A stretch of DNA of 64,000 nucleotides from an uncultured Gemmatimonadales bacterium (GCA_963798915.1 CAWCVB010000005.1:409291-473290), one strand, 5' to 3'; counted from the stretch's first letter, positions 56,404-64,000 are shown. The notes: generated from the letters alone by a model not told the origin. Translations and numbers: made by a program.

Positions 56404-59280
56404 ATGGCTCAGGAATACCTTGTCGTCCGGGGAGCGCGCGAGCACAACCTCAAGGACATCTCGGTGTCCATCCCGAGGAATCGCCTCACCGTCATTACCG
56501 GCCTCTCCGGCTCAGGCAAGTCTTCGCTTGCCTTCGACACCATCTACGCCGAGGGGCAGCGACGCTACGTCGAGTCGCTGTCCGCGTACGCCCGGCAGTT
56601 TCTCGGGCTCATGGAAAAGCCTGACGTCGATGCCATCGAGGGGCTTTCGCCCGCCATCTCCATCGAGCAGAAGAGCACGGGCCAGAATCCGCGGTCCACC
56701 GTTGGCACCGTCACGGAGATCTACGACTACCTGCGGTTGCTCTGGGCTCGGACCGGCGTGCCTCACTGTCCCAATGACGGCAGCCCAGTGGCACGGCAGA
56801 GCGCGGCGCAGATTGTGGACGCCGTGTTGCAGCTGCCCGAAGGTACCCGTATTGAGGTTCTCGCACCGCTGGTGCGAGGAAGAAAAGGCGAGTTCCGGGA
56901 AATGCTCGAGGACGCGCGCCGGCGCGGCTTCGTCCGGGTGCGGGTAGACGGCGAGACCTACGACCTGGCCGACGTGCCCAAGCTGAATCGTCGCAAGAAC
57001 CACGAGATCGCGCTGGTCGTTGATCGGCTGGTGGCGCGGGCTGCCGACCGCTCGCGGCTGCATGACTCGATCGAGACGGCGCTGAAGGAGGCCGACGGCA
57101 TCGTCGAGGTGATTCGCCACGACGGGCAGGGCGGGCGTGGCGGGAAGGTGTCGTCGGTGTTGTACTCCGAGCGCCTGGCGTGTCCCGTGTGCGGGCTGTC
57201 CCTTCCCGAGCTCGAGCCGCGCCAGTTCTCGTTCAATTCCCCGTATGGCGTCTGCCCCGATTGCAACGGCCTCGGTACCCGCAAGGAAGTGACGCCGGGG
57301 CTCATCCTTGGCGATCCGAGCATTTCCATTCTCGAAGGAGTCGTACTGCCCTGGGGCGAGCCCGGGGGGTATCTCCGCAAGGTCGTGATTCCCACTCTTG
57401 CCCGCACCATCGGGTTCGACCCGGCTGCTCCCTGGGGCGATTTGCCACCGGCCGCGCAGGACGCCCTGCTGCACGGAACCGAAGGCAAGATCCGGTTTGC
57501 TGCCGACGGCGCCAAGGGAAAGACTGCCTACGAGGCAGAATGGGAGGGCATCCTCCGGAACGTCGAGCGGCGCTACCGCGAGTCGACCAGCGACGCGGTG
57601 CGCACCTCGCTCGACCAGTACATGGTCGAGATGCCGTGCAGCACCTGCGGCGGCCACCGGCTCAAGCCCGAGTCGCTCTCGGTGCTGGTGCAGGGCCGCA
57701 GCATCGGCGAAGTCATTGATCTTCCGGTGGACCGCGCGCTCGAATTCGTCTCATCGTTGCCGCTGCGCAGTGGCGAGAACGTGATCGGGCTGGATGCCGA
57801 CGTGGCCGGCCCCATCCTCAAGGAGGTCGCCGACCGTCTGCGCTTCCTGGCCGACGTCGGTCTCGGCTACCTCACCTTGGGGCGTGGCGCCGGCTCGCTC
57901 TCCGGTGGCGAGATGCAGCGCATCCGCCTCGCCACCCAGATTGGGTCGCGACTGGTCGGGGTGCTCTACATCCTGGACGAGCCGAGCATCGGGCTTCACC
58001 AACGAGACAACGAGCGTCTGCTGGATACCCTGCGCGGCCTGCGCGACCTGGGCAACACCGTCATCGTCGTGGAGCACGACGAAGACACCATTCGTGCGGC
58101 CGACCATGTGCTGGATCTCGGCCCCCGTGCGGGGCGGCTGGGTGGCGAAGTCGTGGCTGAGGGCACGCCGGACGAAGTGACAGCGGCACCGGATTCGCTC
58201 ACCGGCCGCTACCTGCGCGGCGAGCTCAGGGTCAACGTGCCGGAGCGGCGCCGGTCCGCCAACGGGCGGGCCATCACCGTCGTCGGCGCGTCTGCCAACA
58301 ATCTCAAAGATCTGGACGTGCGCTTCCCGCTCGGCGTATTCACCGCCGTCACCGGAGTTTCCGGTTCAGGCAAGTCCACGCTCGTCACTGACATTCTCTA
58401 CCAGTCACTGGCACGGCATTTCTATCGGGCGCGGGTTCTTCCGGGGGCGCACCAGCGGATCGATGGATTGGAGCAACTGGACAAGGTCATTGATATTGAC
58501 CAAAGCCCCATCGGTCGGACGCCACGCTCAAACCCGGCAACGTACACCGGGCTGTTCACCCCGATTCGCGAGCTGTTCACCCAGTTGCCCGAGGCCAAGC
58601 TGCGCGGTTATGGCCCGGGTCGGTTCTCATTCAATGTGAAGGGCGGGCGCTGCGAGGCCTGTCAGGGTGACGGGCTGGTCAAGATCGAGATGCATTTCCT
58701 GCCTGACGTTTACGTTCCCTGCGAAGTCTGCAAGGGTCGGCGGTATAACCGCGAGACGCTCGAGGTGCGCTACAAGGGGCGCAGCATCGCTGATGTGCTC
58801 GACCTCACGGTGGCAGACGCGCTGGACTTCTTCGCGAACCAGCGGCGGATCGCCGACCGGCTGGAGCTTCTCAATGACGTCGGCCTGGGGTACATCCATC
58901 TCGGTCAGCCGGCCACGACACTCTCCGGCGGCGAGGCGCAGCGGGTCAAGCTGGCGGCGGAACTCGCCAAGCGCGACACCGGGCGCACGCTCTACATCCT
59001 CGACGAGCCGACCACCGGTCTCCACTTCGAGGACGTGCGGCTTCTGCTCGAGGTCCTGCATCGTCTGGTCGACAAGGGAAACTCGGTCGTTGTCATCGAA
59101 CACAACCTGGACGTAATCAAGACGGCCGACTGGATCATCGACCTTGGGCCGGAGGGCGGTGAGCACGGGGGACGCGTCCTGGCGGAGGGTACGCCGGAGC
59201 AGGTGGCGCAGACCACCGGAAGCTTTACGGGGCAATACCTCCGGAGAGCGCTGCAGGGACGACCCGCCGCCTCGCGCTAG
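56404..59280 (+). CDS. uvrA: Excinuclease ABC subunit A
   Basis: GAREHNLK, two Walker A motifs, LSGGE twice, zinc fingers. Confidence 0.99.
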
Positions 59281-59350
59281 GATCGGAGCACGTCCGTCGC
59301 CCCACTAGCCAGCTACTTGCCGCCGACTAGCTTCAGGCGGAGGAGGCTGC

Positions 59351-59584
59351 ATGCGCGAGGCCCATACCCACAGATACACCAATGGAGACCTTACGGTCCT
59401 TTGGCAGCCTGCGCTCTGCCAGCACTCCGGCGCATGCGCTCGCGGCCTGTTGGCCGTCTTTGATCCCCGACGGCGGCCATGGATCGACATGACGGCTGCC
59501 CCAACCGACCAGATCGAGGCCCAGGTACGTCGCTGCCCGAGCGGAGCGCTGAGTTGCGCGCGAGTTGAGCGTCGGCCGTCGTAG
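59351..59584 (+). CDS. YjdI-like divergent 4Fe-4S protein
   Basis: CQHSGAC, VFDPRRRPWI, CPSGAL; strong GGAGG RBS. Confidence 0.88.
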   Translation: MREAHTHRYTNGDLTVLWQPALCQHSGACARGLLAVFDPRRRPWIDMTAAPTDQIEAQVRRCPSGALSCARVERRPS

Positions 59585-59647
59585 CGCTCAGCGCTCGGCC
59601 CGCACTTCCTGGCTCTGAATCTTCCATACCATCCGAGGAGACATCCC

Positions 59648-59863
59648 ATGCGCTACGATGATATTCTCTCCTTGCTCGGCTATGCTGGCGACCACGACCA
59701 GCGGGTCAGGATCGTGACCTCCGAACACACCGAAGTGGTCGGCATTCCCACCAGTCTGGATACGGACGTTACGGCCCACGAGGTCTACCTGCGGCCCGAA
59801 GAGTCGGACGAGACGGAGATTGCGGTTTCGCTGGGCGCCATCGCCTCGGTTGAGCTGGTTTGA
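59648..59863 (+). CDS. 71-aa hypothetical protein, possibly Sm/SH3-like barrel
   Basis: GAGGAG RBS; helix plus about five strands, ending IAVSLGAIASVELV. Confidence 0.65.
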   Translation: MRYDDILSLLGYAGDHDQRVRIVTSEHTEVVGIPTSLDTDVTAHEVYLRPEESDETEIAVSLGAIASVELV

Positions 59864-59877
59864 CTCCTGGCCGTGAC

Positions 59878-59903
59878 GAAACAAACTGAAACATCAGGAC
59901 GTA
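59878..59903 (+). promoter_or_regulatory. Candidate ECF sigma promoter for the array-pspA operon
   Basis: GAAAC (59878-82) N17 CGTA (59900-03) in a locally AT-rich patch. Confidence 0.4.
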
Positions 59904-59960
59904 GGGCTGCGCGTTGCCCGGTCTGACCGCCGGCGAAGGCCCGCTCGAGGAGGCGATGGA

Positions 59961-60218
59961 GTGGAAGGCATACTGGCTATCATCTTCATCTTCGGCGTGC
60001 CAGGAGTGATCGCGCTGTCCTTTACCCCCATCGGGAAGGCCCTGACGGAGCGGATCCGCCACGGCGTTCAGCCCCGGCTGGTCGAGTCAGAACCGGCGAT
60101 GTATGACGAATTAGACGCCTTGCGCCGCGAGGTCGGGGAGCTGGCCGAACGAGTAGATTTTACGGAGCGATTGTTGGCCAAGCAGAATGAGCCCCGCCTG
60201 GTGGAGGGCGGCGAATGA
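59961..60218 (+). CDS. PspB-like array paralog 1
   Basis: GAGGAGG upstream; 1 TM; ELAERVDFTERLLA. Confidence 0.85.
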   Translation: MEGILAIIFIFGVPGVIALSFTPIGKALTERIRHGVQPRLVESEPAMYDELDALRREVGELAERVDFTERLLAKQNEPRLVEGGE

Positions 60219-60535
60219 TGCAGACCGCACCCGTCCTGGCCGGAGATGGCATCCGTCTTGAGCCCTTCATCGTCGGCATCGTCATTGTGATCGCCATTAT
60301 CGGTGGCGTCCAGCTGCTGCTGCCGTTGGTGCGGGCGCTTGCGCGCCGATTGGACGGGGGCGGCGAATCGGCACAACTTCATGACGAACTCGAGATGTTG
60401 CGGGCCAGGGTCCTCGATTTCGAGCCGATGACTCAACGGGTGGCCGAGCTGGAAGAACGCCTTGACTTCACGGAACGCATGCTTGCTGCCAGCGCCCAGC
60501 CCGCCCCCCGGCCTGTCTCGCCGCAGGAGCCCTGA
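60215..60535 (+). CDS. PspB-like array paralog 2
   Basis: 1 TM; ELEERLDFTERMLA. Confidence 0.85.
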   Translation: MMQTAPVLAGDGIRLEPFIVGIVIVIAIIGGVQLLLPLVRALARRLDGGGESAQLHDELEMLRARVLDFEPMTQRVAELEERLDFTERMLAASAQPAPRPVSPQEP

Positions 60536-60538
60536 CCG

Positions 60539-60589
60539 GTGGAAGACGTCATCAAGGTGTTGCTGCTCATCCTCGGTGGGAGGGGGTAA
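60539..60589 (+). pseudogene. 16-codon mini-ORF, probable N-terminal remnant of another paralog
   Basis: AGGAG RBS at 60525-29, GTG start, MEDVIKVLLLILGGRG*; resembles paralog 1 start MEGILAIIFIFG. Confidence 0.5.
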
Positions 60590-60592
60590 CTC

Positions 60593-60949
60593 ATGAGGCG
60601 GGAAAAGCAGGAATGGATCGGTGCCGCCTTTGTCGGAATCGGGTTGGGGGCGATGGCACTGTTTGGCGCGCTCGCTGCGGCGTCCGCCGTGCTGGGTCCG
60701 ATCTCCGTGCCGATCTGGGCCATCGCCGCATTCATGGTGATGGGTATTGTGAGGTCGCCTGTCGGGAAGGCATTTGCGGAGCGCCTCGCGGGCCGCACCA
60801 CTGACTCCGACGACCCGGATCTGCCCGCGCTCTACGCCGAACTTGACGAGTTGCGGGCCCGCCTGAGCGAGATGGAAGAACGCCAGGATTTTGCCGAGCG
60901 GTTGCTGGCGCAGCCACCGCAGGCGGGAATTCACGGGGAAGCGAGCTGA
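60593..60949 (+). CDS. PspB-like array paralog 3
   Basis: 2 TM; EMEERQDFAERLLA. Confidence 0.85.
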   Translation: MRREKQEWIGAAFVGIGLGAMALFGALAAASAVLGPISVPIWAIAAFMVMGIVRSPVGKAFAERLAGRTTDSDDPDLPALYAELDELRARLSEMEERQDFAERLLAQPPQAGIHGEAS

Positions 60950-60952
60950 CTC

Positions 60953-61270
60953 ATGATGCTTCAGGGAACTCAGTCGGGCGAGTTTGGCATGGCGCTGGCG
61001 CTTGGCGCCGTTGCGATCTGCCTGATCTTTGTGGTGCTGCGGCCGCTGATGGCGGCGCTGATGCATCGGATTGCCCGCCATGATGATGAGTCGTTGCTCG
61101 AGCTCGAGGCCCGGGTGGCGCGCTTGGAGGAGGGCGGGATGATGGGAGCGCTTCCCTCACAGACGGAGCAGAGGGTGGCTGAGCTGGAAGAACGCCTCGA
61201 TTTTGCCGAGCGATTGCTGGCGCAGCCACGGACGCCCGGTTCGCATGGCGCCGAGGGAGTGATCCGATGA
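60953..61270 (+). CDS. PspB-like array paralog 4
   Basis: 1 TM; ELEERLDFAERLLA. Confidence 0.85.
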   Translation: MMLQGTQSGEFGMALALGAVAICLIFVVLRPLMAALMHRIARHDDESLLELEARVARLEEGGMMGALPSQTEQRVAELEERLDFAERLLAQPRTPGSHGAEGVIR

Positions 61271-61596
61271 TGATCCAGGTTCCGGCGCCACCGGCGCCTC
61301 CTGACATCCCCAGCTTTCTGGTCCAGACGGGCGGTCCTCCGGCCTGGGCGTTTGTCATCCCGATCGTTGCGATCCTGGTCGCGGGGATCGTGTTCTTCCC
61401 CTTGATGCGTGCGCTGGCACGACGGATAGAAGGGAAGATCAGCGGCGGTGTGCAGGATGAGCTGGAGGATCTCCGGTCACGGATCATGACCTTGGAGGAA
61501 CAGGCGATGCGCGTGCCGGAGCTGGAAGAGCGGGTGGACTTCGCGGAGCGACTCCTGGCCAGCACCCGCACGGCCGACCGGTTAACGGAGGGATGA
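61267..61596 (+). CDS. PspB-like array paralog 5
   Basis: Pro-rich N-terminus, 1 TM; ELEERVDFAERLLA. Confidence 0.85.
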   Translation: MMIQVPAPPAPPDIPSFLVQTGGPPAWAFVIPIVAILVAGIVFFPLMRALARRIEGKISGGVQDELEDLRSRIMTLEEQAMRVPELEERVDFAERLLASTRTADRLTEG

Positions 61597-61599
61597 GTC

Positions 61600-61974
61600 A
61601 TGGCGGATGACCAGGATCGCGGCGCTTTCACCATGCTCTGGATCGTCTCGGTACTGCTCTCCATCGGCATGGGGTTCATGTGCCTGGTCGCTCTGAGCGA
61701 AAATCAGGAAGTCGCGGCGCTGTTCGGGTTGGGCGGTTTTGGTGTTGGCGGCTTGCTCGCTACCACCTACCAGCTCACACGCAACCGGCGTCGTTCGCGG
61801 CCATCGGACGAGGCCCTCGAGCCACTGGTGGAGCGACTGCAGATGCTCGAGCAGGACCAGCTACGGATGGCCGAACTTGAAGAGCGGGTAGATTTCGCCG
61901 AACGGATGCTGGCCAAAGCCGAGGAGCATCAGCCCGCGGTGCGCTCAGGCGAGCGGGAACCACCCCTCACATGA
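61600..61974 (+). CDS. PspB-like array paralog 6
   Basis: 2 TM; ELEERVDFAERMLA. Confidence 0.85.
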   Translation: MADDQDRGAFTMLWIVSVLLSIGMGFMCLVALSENQEVAALFGLGGFGVGGLLATTYQLTRNRRRSRPSDEALEPLVERLQMLEQDQLRMAELEERVDFAERMLAKAEEHQPAVRSGEREPPLT

Positions 61975-62336
61975 GCTGGCGCAGGACTTTCGGGCTTGAC
62001 CCGATTGAGTTCATCATCTTCTGGCTGCTGGCCTTCGGGTTGGGCGTGGGCCTGGCCGACCTCAGCCACGAGGACGGATTCATTCCTCTCGCGCTCTCGG
62101 TGGCGGCGGGGCTCTATGTGTTCGTCCGGCGCCGAGCACTCGGGCGGCTGGGGCGGGAAGGGCAGGCCGGTGATGACCTGGCGGAATTGCGCGACGACCA
62201 GCGCGCCGCCACCGACTACTTTGAGCGCCGGATCACGGAGATCGAGGAGCGCCTGGACTTCACGGAGCGGATGCTGGCGCGGGCTCAGGATGAGATGCCG
62301 CTGCTGGAGCCCCGGCGGGGCGGGCAGGGCTCGTGA
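61971..62336 (+). CDS. PspB-like array paralog 7
   Basis: 2 TM; EIEERLDFTERMLA. Confidence 0.85.
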   Translation: MSWRRTFGLDPIEFIIFWLLAFGLGVGLADLSHEDGFIPLALSVAAGLYVFVRRRALGRLGREGQAGDDLAELRDDQRAATDYFERRITEIEERLDFTERMLARAQDEMPLLEPRRGGQGS

Positions 62337-62722
62337 GCTGGCGGGGTGTTTTCGGGCTCGACGGAGTCGAGTTCGTGCTCTTCTGGGCTGGCTCCATCGT
62401 TACGGCGATCCTCGTCGGGGTGGCCTCGGAGGAGCCGGCAGCAGCGATGTCAATGCTGGTACTGGCCGCGTTCGTGTACGCGGTGCTGCGACGGCGGGCG
62501 CTCCGCGGCCTGCCGGCGCAGGACGGGGGCAAGCTGGAGGAACTGGTGGCCCAGCTGCAGGACGAACAGTCGGCCGCATCCGAGTTCTTCGAGCGACGCA
62601 TTGCCGAGCTGGAGGAGCGGGTGGACTTTGCTGAGCGCATGCTGGCGCGAGGGCAGGAAGAACGGCTGGAAGCTGGCCGTCAGTCATCGGTCATCAGTCG
62701 ACCGTTGACTGACGACCCTTGA
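62333..62722 (+). CDS. PspB-like array paralog 8
   Basis: 2 TM; ELEERVDFAERMLA. Confidence 0.85.
   Translation: MSWRGVFGLDGVEFVLFWAGSIVTAILVGVASEEPAAAMSMLVLAAFVYAVLRRRALRGLPAQDGGKLEELVAQLQDEQSAASEFFERRIAELEERVDFAERMLARGQEERLEAGRQSSVISRPLTDDP
62678..62714. repeat. Heptamer-based inverted repeat
   Basis: cgtcagtca (62678-86) / tgactgacg (62706-14) perfect 9-bp arms; cagtcat-cggtcat-cagtcga heptamers. Confidence 0.55.
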
Positions 62723-62757
62723 CCGGCACGAGCGACGACTTACTCACGGAGCACCAC

Positions 62758-63153
62758 ATGGTCACACGGGAAGATATTCAGTCCTGGCTGGACCGGCTGG
62801 ATGGAGGCGGGCTCCAGATCGAAGAGCCGGAGTCCAATCTCTGGATTGCCACGACGCCGGACGGCGGCGAGATCGTATGTAACTATGCCCCTCCGGTCAT
62901 GATTCTCCGGGTGCGGGTCATGGAAGCTCCGCGGGACGATACCCGCCGGGCCGAGCTCTTTCGGGAGCTCCTGACCTTGAACGCCCACGAGCTGGTCCAT
63001 GGCTCGTACGGGCTGGAGGGTGACCATATCGTGCTGACGGACACCCTCGAGCTCGAGGACCTGGATTATTCCGAATTCGAAGCCAGCTTCGATTCCATGA
63101 CCCTTGCCCTGGCGTCGCACATGTCTGCGCTGGCGCCCTACCGAGACAGGTGA
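62758..63153 (+). CDS. CesT/YbjN-like (type III chaperone fold) acidic protein
   Basis: GGAG RBS; small acidic protein; ELFRELLTLNA..LVHGSYGLEGDHIVL pattern; immediately upstream of pspA. Confidence 0.75.
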   Translation: MVTREDIQSWLDRLDGGGLQIEEPESNLWIATTPDGGEIVCNYAPPVMILRVRVMEAPRDDTRRAELFRELLTLNAHELVHGSYGLEGDHIVLTDTLELEDLDYSEFEASFDSMTLALASHMSALAPYRDR

Positions 63154-63162
63154 GAGACGACG

Positions 63163-63930
63163 ATGGGAATCTTTGACCGCTTCTCGACGCTGCTCCGGTC
63201 GAACATCAACGACCTCATCTCCCGGGCCGAGAATCCCGAGAAGATGCTGAACCAGCTGATCACGGACATGCGATCACAGCTGGGCAAGGCCAAGACCGAG
63301 GTGGCGGGTGCCATCGCGGACGAGAAGAAGCTGGAGTCCGACGCCCAGGCCATGAAGAAACAGGCCGAGGAGTGGGAACGCCGTGCCATGCTGGCGGTCC
63401 AGGAAGGGCGTGACGACCTGGCCAAGCAGGCGCTGACTCGCTACAACGAAAACCTGCAGGGCGCCCAGCAGCTGCACGAGACCTGGGTCAAGTCCAAGCA
63501 GGAGACCGAGGCGCTGAAGCTGTCGCTCCGGCAGTTGAATGACAAGATCGAGGAAGCCAAGCGCAAGAAGAACATTCTGATTGCACGAGCGCGGCGGTCC
63601 GAAGCGCAGCAGCGCATTCAGCAGACCATGGCTGGCATGTCGGACAAGAGTGCCTTCGAGTCGTTCGAGCGGATGGCGGAGAAGATCGAATCCAACGAAC
63701 GCAAGGCGCTGGCGGCGGCCGAATTGCACGAAGAGTTTACCGGCGACTCGCTGGCCAGGCAGTTCGAGGTGCTCGAGTATCACGGCAGCGCCGACCAGCA
63801 GCTGCTCGAATTGAAGCAGAAGATGGGACTGCTCGGTGCCGGCAGCAGTGGCGAGGCAAGGCGCCTCGGCAAGGGAATGGATGACGTGCAGGATGCCGAG
63901 GTGGAGGAGGAGGGGGGAACTGAAGGCTGA
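63163..63930 (+). CDS. pspA: PspA/IM30 (ESCRT-III superfamily) protein
   Basis: MGIFDRFSTLLRSNINDLISRAENPEKMLNQLI, GRDDLAKQAL, FERMAEKI. Confidence 0.96.
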   Translation: MGIFDRFSTLLRSNINDLISRAENPEKMLNQLITDMRSQLGKAKTEVAGAIADEKKLESDAQAMKKQAEEWERRAMLAVQEGRDDLAKQALTRYNENLQGAQQLHETWVKSKQETEALKLSLRQLNDKIEEAKRKKNILIARARRSEAQQRIQQTMAGMSDKSAFESFERMAEKIESNERKALAAAELHEEFTGDSLARQFEVLEYHGSADQQLLELKQKMGLLGAGSSGEARRLGKGMDDVQDAEVEEEGGTEG

Positions 63931-64000
63931 GGGCGGAATGCTCGCCGCTGAAGGCTGAACGCTGAACACCCGGGCCGGGCACCGTGTTAGTATTCACGGC

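Follow-up and report, generated by a model that had tools for sequence, protein, structure and literature searches.

We analyzed a stretch of 64,000 nucleotides (nt) from an uncultured Gemmatimonadales bacterium (GCA_963798915.1, CAWCVB010000005.1:409291-473290), called the window here, with positions counted from its first letter. Near its end, eight tandem genes for small membrane proteins, referred to below as the array, lead into a gene for a CesT/Tir-like protein and then into pspA. PspA and Vipp1 are bacterial ESCRT-III superfamily members, and to our knowledge their recruitment to membranes outside the Proteobacteria and Firmicutes is largely unknown. An earlier interpretation made from the sequence alone (the sequence-only reading) had described the array as PspB-like proteins with variable membrane parts and one near-invariant C-terminal motif. 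The array proved to be a genuine and conserved expansion of a family of small membrane proteins linked to PspA, and apparently one without an earlier description.

Organization of the array

The array occupies positions 59961 to 62722 of the plus strand, where an open reading frame (ORF) listing gives eight co-oriented ORFs of 85 to 129 amino acids (aa), g1 to g8, each of which carries the shared motif. The first gene, g1 (59961-60218, 85 aa), represents the core subtype; it begins with GTG and has GAGGAGG 8 nt ahead of that start. Its product enters a transmembrane (TM) helix at residue 2, continues with PIGKALTERIR as a juxtamembrane helix and then a long helix with the motif at its end, and is essentially without a periplasmic part. 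It is followed by g2 (60215-60535, 106 aa, one TM segment), whose subtype has a short N-terminal tail outside the membrane, and by g3 (60593-60949, 118 aa, two TM segments; EMEERQDFAERLLA). Next come g4 (60953-61270, 105 aa, one TM segment), the cytoplasmic helix of which is broken by a loop containing Gly and Pro, g5 (61267-61596, 109 aa, one TM segment), which has a proline-rich N-terminal tail, and g6 (61600-61974, 124 aa, two TM segments). The last two genes, g7 (61971-62336, 121 aa) and g8 (62333-62722, 129 aa, GTG start), share a subtype marked by MSWR..FGLD and read as having two TM segments, and their products are 48% identical.

The junctions from g1 through g8 measure -4, +57, +3, -4, +3, -4, and -4 nt; g8 also overlaps the CesT-like ORF by 4 nt (junction -4 nt), and 9 nt separate that ORF from pspA. 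All ten genes end in TGA, and a clear purine-rich, Shine-Dalgarno-like stretch precedes the start of five of the eight array genes (g1, g2, g3, g5, and g6). A Kyte-Doolittle scan gave one TM segment for g1, g2, g4, and g5 and two clear segments for g3 and g6; g7 showed one clear peak and g8 overlapping peaks, and the second TM segment of both was read by eye. In the two-TM types the loops are only a few residues long, and the coiled-coil helix that follows the membrane part is predicted from the sequence to be cytoplasmic. When the core-type alignment was submitted to AlphaFold2, the model of g1 contained helices at residues 2 to 20 (the TM helix), 23 to 34, and 39 to 75, with a mean predicted local distance difference test score (pLDDT) of 86, values of 97 to 98 over residues 50 to 70, and a predicted template modeling score (pTM) of 0.40. 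The ORF listing and hydropathy thus bore out the eight tandem, co-oriented genes with one or two TM segments and mostly overlapping or 3-nt junctions that had been noted beforehand.

Linkage to pspA and distribution of the family

From published genomes of the window's own Gemmatimonadales family (f1 here), we retrieved 69 pspA loci, which represent 69 species mostly of different genera, and scanned them with a profile of the eight array proteins (alignment A1). At least one array member lay directly upstream of pspA on the same strand in 68 of the 69 loci, and at least two lay there in 67; no opposite-strand member was found in these loci with this profile. Array size had a median of 5 and a maximum of 13: one locus had no copy and one had a single copy, followed by two copies in 7 loci, three in 8, four in 14, five in 12, six in 7, seven in 6, eight in 4, nine in 5, ten in 3, and 13 in 1. 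The linkage of the array to pspA, claimed from the window, is therefore strong and family-wide. Upstream of the array, uvrA was present in 60 of the 69 loci, and a DUF1611 gene lay downstream in 43. These recurrent flanks, together with the varying counts, indicate that the array resides at a fixed chromosomal site where its copy number changes in place. The largest array (L141, G195:C64) has 13 members with three copies of near-identical type at its end, and another locus (L148, G178:C6) carries three core-type copies; these repeats indicate that genes were duplicated locally and recently in some lineages.

When 151 genomes were sampled across the phylum, the array family was detected in all 71 sampled f1 genomes, with 4 to 20 matches each (this tally includes one genome flagged as unpublished, G057). 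The sister family f2 gave single weak matches in 10 of 31 genomes, and occurrence elsewhere in the phylum sample was sparse. Searched against 1.84 billion representative clusters, the A1 profile matched 2751 at E <= 1e-3 and 593 at E <= 1e-10, and the 90% clusters held at least 4728 matching proteins. Among 120 matches listed, most were named "hypothetical," a few had generic labels (PilN/PilO, CcmH), and none had a Pfam domain. In contigs sampled at one genome per species, 457 candidate stretches encode an array-family relative; by hand count, 78 of the best 80 of these 457 genome loci had Gemmatimonad* titles, and the others were an "uncultured bacterium" and a contig labeled Chloroflexota. 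The latter (L120) is only 1946 bp long and may well be a binning error.

None of the eight array proteins matched a meaningful family in a Pfam scan at E <= 1 or reached a cut-off in an NCBIfam scan; the family is without a Pfam or NCBIfam model. PADLOC likewise gave no match for the eight array proteins or the CesT-like protein and only weak coiled-coil matches for PspA. A search of sequencing runs listed no RNA run with the sequence, and 0.09 of the sampled words occurred in one soil DNA run. A search for longer family proteins returned one match; this match and most representatives with multiple stretches were rejected as fusions, as they look like read-through or frameshifted gene calls. 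In one 209-aa protein from a 935-bp contig (P0151), a core-type and a proline-rich-type unit look joined in frame, and this fusion may be real.

The invariant box of the C-terminal helix

The eight proteins, pairwise 28 to 48% identical, share in alignment A1 an invariant E..ER.DF.ER.LA, and the expression E-[LMI]-[EA]-E-R-x-D-F-[AT]-E-R-[LM]-L-A, whose positions are numbered 1 to 14 here, matches all eight. A relaxed search for this box in six frames of the 3.3-Mb genome gave eight matches, all inside the array. For every invariant residue, the eight copies use two or three synonymous codons between them (GAT and GAC four times each for D, TTT and TTC four times each for F). This codon diversity and the low identity between paralogs indicate that the box is held by selection at the protein level and not by recent gene conversion. 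Conservation was then scored over the 363 box-anchored proteins among 368 array proteins: R5, E10, and R11 were present in 100%, F8 in 99%, E4 in 95%, and D7 in 92%. The near-invariant motif announced from the window therefore holds both in the eight copies and throughout the family.

In the same 363 proteins, hydrophobic residues at positions -8, -5, -1, 2, 6, 9, and 13 follow a 3-4-3-4 spacing, a regular a/d heptad, and these heptad positions accept L, V, M, A, or T. With position 6 set as a, R5 takes position g, E10 position e, R11 and E4 position f, F8 position c, and D7 position b. In this inferred register, R5 (g) and E10 (e) are as far apart as the partners of the classical g-e' salt bridge in parallel coiled coils, and E4, D7, F8, and R11 would point outward from the coiled coil. 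Such residues lying off the a/d core would fit a shared docking surface on a dimeric stalk. A search of solved structures gave as its best match the coiled-coil neck of a C-type lectin (E 2e-4); the others, at E >= 0.07, were coiled coils and ion-channel helices, and all structure matches were judged compositional and set aside. A likeness of the box to the F..FER segment of PspA or to MIM motifs, judged by eye only, was also dropped.

Subtypes of the N-terminal parts

We clustered the N-terminal parts of the 368 array proteins, which come from 70 loci (the 69 loci plus the window locus). The core subtype of g1, MEG-ILAI-FIFGG ... SP-G-A, was present in 66 of the 70 loci, mostly as one copy; in its TM helix region F11, G25, and A27 never vary, and conservation reaches at least 90% for G12, G13, S22, and P23. 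The community of g3 occurred in 45 loci, the proline-rich community of g2 and g5 in 36, the two-TM community of g7 and g8 in 16 (usually late in the array), and the g6 subtype in 2, and g4 was a singleton. A further subtype, found in 17 loci, was always last in the array, and its listed members came from loci without a CesT-like gene. Singletons made up 43 of the 57 N-terminal clusters. The N-terminal parts thus represent old and separate types, each of them conserved, with some turnover at the margins, and are not hypervariable; the free-running variable cassettes envisaged in the sequence-only reading gave way to old subtypes conserved across genera. As g1 is essentially without a periplasmic part, any sensing by this protein would have to be intramembrane.

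The CesT-like gene and pspA

The gene after g8 encodes a CesT/Tir-like (YbjN-like) protein (62719-63153, plus strand; 144 aa as the longest ORF) that matches PF22550 (CesT_Tir_1) with an E value of 7.7e-24. Its longest ORF begins at a TTG at 62719, and an alternative ATG lies at 62758 (MVTREDI...); the ATG is probably the true start, as it agrees with the N termini of orthologues. Next, pspA (63163-63930, plus strand, 255 aa) matches PF04012 (PspA_IM30) with an E value of 2.2e-47 over residues 2 to 220 (162 bits, cut-off 33.9). The order of array, CesT-like gene, and pspA described previously was confirmed by these two domain matches, and the two genes, 9 nt apart on the same strand, form a CesT/Tir-PspA dyad. 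Compared to the NCBIfam equivalog TIGR02977, the pspA product scored 137.9 bits, under the cut-off of 242.95; it is a PspA-family member and not the proteobacterial equivalog. PspA was single-copy in 76 of 81 sampled f1 genomes, a tally that takes in the unpublished genomes G159 and G189. A C-terminal PspA feature specific to array-bearing genomes was considered and rejected, since orthologues from array-free families also align to about residue 250.

Among the 69 array-bearing loci, window included, a CesT-like gene lies between the array and pspA in 33, the gap from the last member to pspA is at most 180 nt and too short for a gene in 32, and a gap of 410 to 464 nt with unassigned content is present in 4. 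The CesT-like gene is thus not a universal partner of the box. The sequence-only reading had also stated that the window lacks pspC and pspF; the pspC part stands, the only PspC domain found in the genome being on a different contig (C2:65253-65423), and pspF was not searched for.

The region upstream of the array

A promoter-like motif of the extracytoplasmic function (ECF) sigma type, GAAAC-N17-CGTA, occupies 59878-59903 of the plus strand and was recognized by sequence and conservation. Its place is 58 nt ahead of g1, beyond the stop codon of a 71-aa ORF, and a second GAAAC follows 10 nt downstream. In the related loci, GA[AC]AC-N16-18-CGTA was found between -300 and +120 of the first array ORF in 48 of 69, compared to 0.68 expected from the 48 matches on both strands of the remaining 2.05 Mb of the same loci, and TGAAAC was present in 40 of 65 upstream regions of array loci. 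The motif therefore has a (G)AAC -35 element, a CGT(A/C) -10 element, a spacing of about 16 to 17 nt, and conservation in relatives. In the account given in PMC5758882, a class with tgaAAC at -35 and CGTA at -10 is recognized by envelope-stress ECF sigma factors of B. subtilis, including sigma-W. We infer that the array operon is under ECF control from this putative promoter. No match to TGGCAC-N5-TTGC (the sigma-54 consensus, with up to two mismatches) was present in 58424-60246; the window as a whole had 93 matches versus 77 expected.

Two other copies of the motif stand before genes elsewhere in the genome. About 36 kb before the window, at C5:373266 (plus strand), a second double motif, GAAAC...TGAAACAT...CGTA, precedes a gene for an 81-aa, very hydrophobic protein, which may belong to the same putative ECF regulon as the array. 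At C3:69508 (plus strand), GAAAC-N17-CGTA is followed by a 200-aa ORF in which an H-x3-C-x2-C, as in zinc-binding anti-sigma factors, was seen by eye; a cognate ECF sigma and anti-sigma pair might be encoded there. The 71-aa ORF itself (59648-59863, plus strand) matches no Pfam family and has relatives upstream of the array in 24 of the 69 loci. Between it and uvrA lies a gene for a divergent 4Fe-4S mono-cluster protein (59351-59584, plus strand; 77 aa, PF06902, E 1.3e-23), relatives of which were found at none of the 69 related loci.

Origin of the array and relatives away from pspA

For the origin of the array, we turned to other families of the class and inspected 21 of their pspA loci. The CesT-like ORF abuts pspA in at least 15 of them, and a single small gene for a TM/coiled-coil protein lies upstream of the cesT-pspA pair in 7 (f6, 5 of 7; f8, 1 of 1; f5, 1 of 1); no single small TM gene was seen at pspA in f2 (0 of 5), f7 (0 of 6), or f4 (0 of 1). 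The aligned single-copy proteins (alignment A4) have the box L-x-E-E-Q-x-F-[LM]-x-x-L-L and match the core type in hhalign with a probability of 97.8% and an E value of 9.9e-13. This match indicates that the array family descends from one gene of an ancestral operon consisting of a small TM gene, cesT, and pspA. In family f3 of the same order (G069), a five-gene array also adjoins pspA.

Two relatives were found on contig C6 of the window's own genome. One (locus L012, 4382-4768, minus strand), of 128 aa, combines an N-terminal TM2 domain (PF05154, E 1.8e-20) with the box LSERLDFAERLLA at its end; the box is therefore found, module-like, also on a membrane anchor that is unrelated and encoded away from pspA. 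The other (locus L013, 4388-4669, minus strand), 93 aa long, belongs to the ancestral type (SPIGRAIARRLEG ... EDNAFLQRLIED) and aligns with the A4 single-copy proteins; its gene sits, by eye, between murJ-like and bshC-like ORFs. The neighborhoods of unlinked relatives in other families showed no recurring partner; they held genes for a tricorn-like protease, a solute symporter, a major facilitator superfamily (MFS) transporter, a GNAT acetyltransferase, and DUF423. The linkage of motif-bearing genes to pspA thus holds within f1, and relatives outside f1 are often not adjacent to it.

Likeness to PspB

The description of the array proteins as PspB-like was examined with several models. With PF06667, none of the eight array proteins matched at E <= 1, the best match in the genome (E 0.68) lay outside the array, and the cut-off was passed in none of the 151 genomes of the phylum. 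With TIGR02976, three of the eight scored 14.8 to 17.8 bits, compared to a cut-off of 51.7 that was passed in none of 81 f1 genomes. Among core-type proteins, 30 of 69 matched TIGR02976 at E <= 0.1, the best at 1.1e-4, and the next model was matched by 6. Fifty published f1 genomes had any TIGR02976 match at E <= 0.05; when coordinates were compared by hand, the best genome-wide six-frame match fell inside the pspA-adjacent array in 26 of these and elsewhere in 24. The best match in the window's genome is in g5 (C5:470632-470856, E 0.017). Profile comparison with PspB by hhalign gave probabilities of 29.8% for 346 family proteins, 0.85% for the core type, 13% for A1, and 2.7% for the ancestral type, with PspB alignments that were enterobacterial and of low diversity (identity to E. 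coli PspB was 72% or more for every protein in their source list). Among named clusters of the ESM Atlas, PspB was the nearest, at 0.81, which is a lead only.

PspB has one TM segment and a cytoplasmic helix in about 75 aa; among the array proteins, of 85 to 129 aa, four have one TM segment and four were read as having two. A PspB operon would contain pspA and pspC, of which pspA is adjacent here and the PspC domain is on another contig. Compared to PspB, the array family is PspB-like in architecture and context, and by sequence its membership fails the curated cut-offs. The earlier label is thus apt for the former and weakly so for the latter.

Proposed function and alternative explanations

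We propose, with a confidence only slightly better than even, that the locus is an envelope-stress operon under ECF control and that its small membrane proteins are adaptors of PspA, with the invariant outer face of their coiled coil as the means of contact. One operon would comprise the ECF-sigma-type promoter, the eight small membrane proteins, the CesT-like chaperone-fold protein, and PspA. Each array protein would have one or two TM segments as its N-terminal anchor, then a short helix next to the membrane, and last a coiled-coil helix in the cytoplasm that ends in the box. The proteins would dimerize or hetero-oligomerize through the heptad core, and the outer face (E4, D7, F8, and R11) would serve as one shared docking site where PspA is tethered or nucleated on the inner membrane, a role that would correspond to that of PspB/PspC in enterobacteria and of LiaI in Bacillus. 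The ancestral single-copy gene multiplied at its site, with uvrA on one side and pspA on the other, and gave rise to old, individually conserved subtypes, of which the core type persists nearly everywhere.

Several points weigh against this proposal. Relatives with the box occur away from pspA, as a three-gene array (G049) and as single genes (G061 and G132, with the box LEERQDFTE[RK]LI), and these relatives and the TM2 fusion indicate that the helix is not exclusively a module of pspA operons. Homology to PspB stays below threshold with PF06667, in the phylum-wide scan, and in hhalign (0.85 to 30%), and PspA orthologues of array-free families align over the same residues, about 1 to 250, at 55 to 65% identity. 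The promoter-like motif is missing in 21 of the 69 loci, some of which are cut by contig ends. Within 59200-64000, a scan for sigma-70-like promoters gave no site, and no convincing terminator was found, the three terminator-like sites (2.3 expected) all being intragenic. Co-transcription of the array and pspA is predicted from overlaps and short gaps only, and the binding of PspA by array proteins is a putative step. A complex prediction of PspA (alignment A3) with residues 21 to 85 of g1 (alignment A2), run without controls, gave scores of 0.01 and 0.20 (mark, 0.32) and speaks neither for nor against binding.

The sequence-only reading had proposed variable sensors on a constant dock: the TM parts of the paralogs would differ in the membrane insult that they detect or the membrane site that they mark, and all would signal to PspA by way of one shared helix. 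This is consistent with N-terminal parts that differ strongly among paralogs next to an invariant helix box, and with copy numbers of 1 to 13 between genera and 43 singletons among 57 clusters, which point to birth-and-death turnover. However, the main subtypes are old and conserved, TM helices included, a better fit to fixed roles or a fixed heteromer; moreover, g1 is without an extracytoplasmic part, the loops of the two-TM types span a few residues, and the Pfam and NCBIfam scans of the array proteins found no ligand-binding domain. We consider this explanation unlikely. Of similarly low probability, in our estimate, is that the array proteins are co-regulated stress effectors independent of PspA, a hetero-oligomeric coiled-coil/TM assembly that stabilizes or reorganizes the membrane, with the box serving the assembly of paralogs only. 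E. coli PspG and PspD, which are co-induced with PspA, are a model for such effectors. The heptad pattern and the R5-E10 pair would suit a parallel coiled coil among paralogs, and members or arrays off pspA in other families, as well as the TM2-domain fusion, agree with a function apart from PspA. Yet the invariant F8, D7, E4, and R11, at b, c, and f positions, would be unneeded for a simple dimer interface, and adjacency to pspA is kept in 68 of 69 genomes from species mostly of different genera.

It is very doubtful, finally, that the array genes are true, highly diverged PspB orthologues in a classical circuit of the PspB/PspC/PspF type. TIGR02976 matches were consistent, if sub-threshold, and the one-TM types have the size and topology of PspB; against this, the curated cut-offs were never reached, pspC is unlinked, the upstream signal is of the ECF type with no sigma-54 consensus match in the interval scanned, and the profile-profile probabilities were low with a PspB alignment of low diversity.

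If the array proteins are PspA adaptors, as we propose, a more specific and speculative version, which we hold to be improbable as it stands, is that they form combinatorial membrane "address tags" for the ESCRT-III-like PspA: the old TM subtypes would pair by their shared coiled coil into varied homo- and heterodimers, each presenting the same E4/D7/F8/R11 face to nucleate polymerization. If true, one ECF-controlled operon would direct PspA to several membrane sites or lesions, and the logic of these adaptors would resemble that of eukaryotic ESCRT-III targeting factors. The adaptor proposal has a sharply defined candidate interface of about 14 residues, four of which are conserved in 99 to 100% of members, a small mutable target for binding studies, and the loci offer a natural copy-number series. 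A whole bacterial family carries 1 to 13 copies of an unnamed small membrane protein ahead of pspA; the locus displays the in-place amplification of a single-copy partner gene and brings in a further family, with more than 2700 sequence clusters, for which Pfam and NCBIfam have no model.

Comparison with known systems

No earlier description of such an array was found among the top-ranked results of full-text searches, judged by title and the beginning of the abstract, in agreement with the sequence-only reading, which knew of none. The main texts of PMC11237479 and PMC9239133 and one supplement of the former contain no mention of Gemmatimonadota; the web tables may list such neighborhoods.

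PspB was the only named family matched repeatedly, if weakly, and the array proteins resemble it as small inner-membrane proteins with an N-terminal TM segment and a predicted cytoplasmic helix, encoded in a pspA operon. In contrast to pspB, the array genes lie upstream of pspA without an adjacent pspC and in 2 to 13 copies, compared to 1 or 2 for PspB; some members have two TM segments, and the E-R-x-D-F-x-E-R box is specific to the array family. The promoter-like motif is also of the ECF type, whereas E. coli psp is described as under sigma-54 control with PspF in the main text of PMC9239133, which surveys Psp neighborhoods.

The CesT/Tir-PspA dyad, as well as PspB duplicates in an operon, was described by Ravi et al. 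(2024, mSystems, PMC11237479). The last two genes of the window operon are exactly this dyad, which is found in the sister families too. In the passages of that paper found by term search, the dyad stands alone or with band-7/flotillin proteins, an AAA+ ATPase, and a 3-TM protein, and no array of small TM proteins is described. SHOCT and SHOCT-like bihelical domains are PspA-associated there; no Pfam match to SHOCT or DUF1707 was obtained for the eight array proteins at E <= 1.

The eight array proteins gave no Pfam or NCBIfam match to a LiaI/LiaF-type domain. LiaI of Bacillus subtilis is a small membrane protein that is co-expressed with the PspA homologue LiaH and serves as its membrane anchor; it is a single gene under a two-component system, and Bacillus pspA is under sigma-W control. 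The array shares with the LiaI-LiaH pair the combination of a small membrane protein, a PspA homologue, and a putative envelope-stress promoter, a likeness that is one of functional analogy only.

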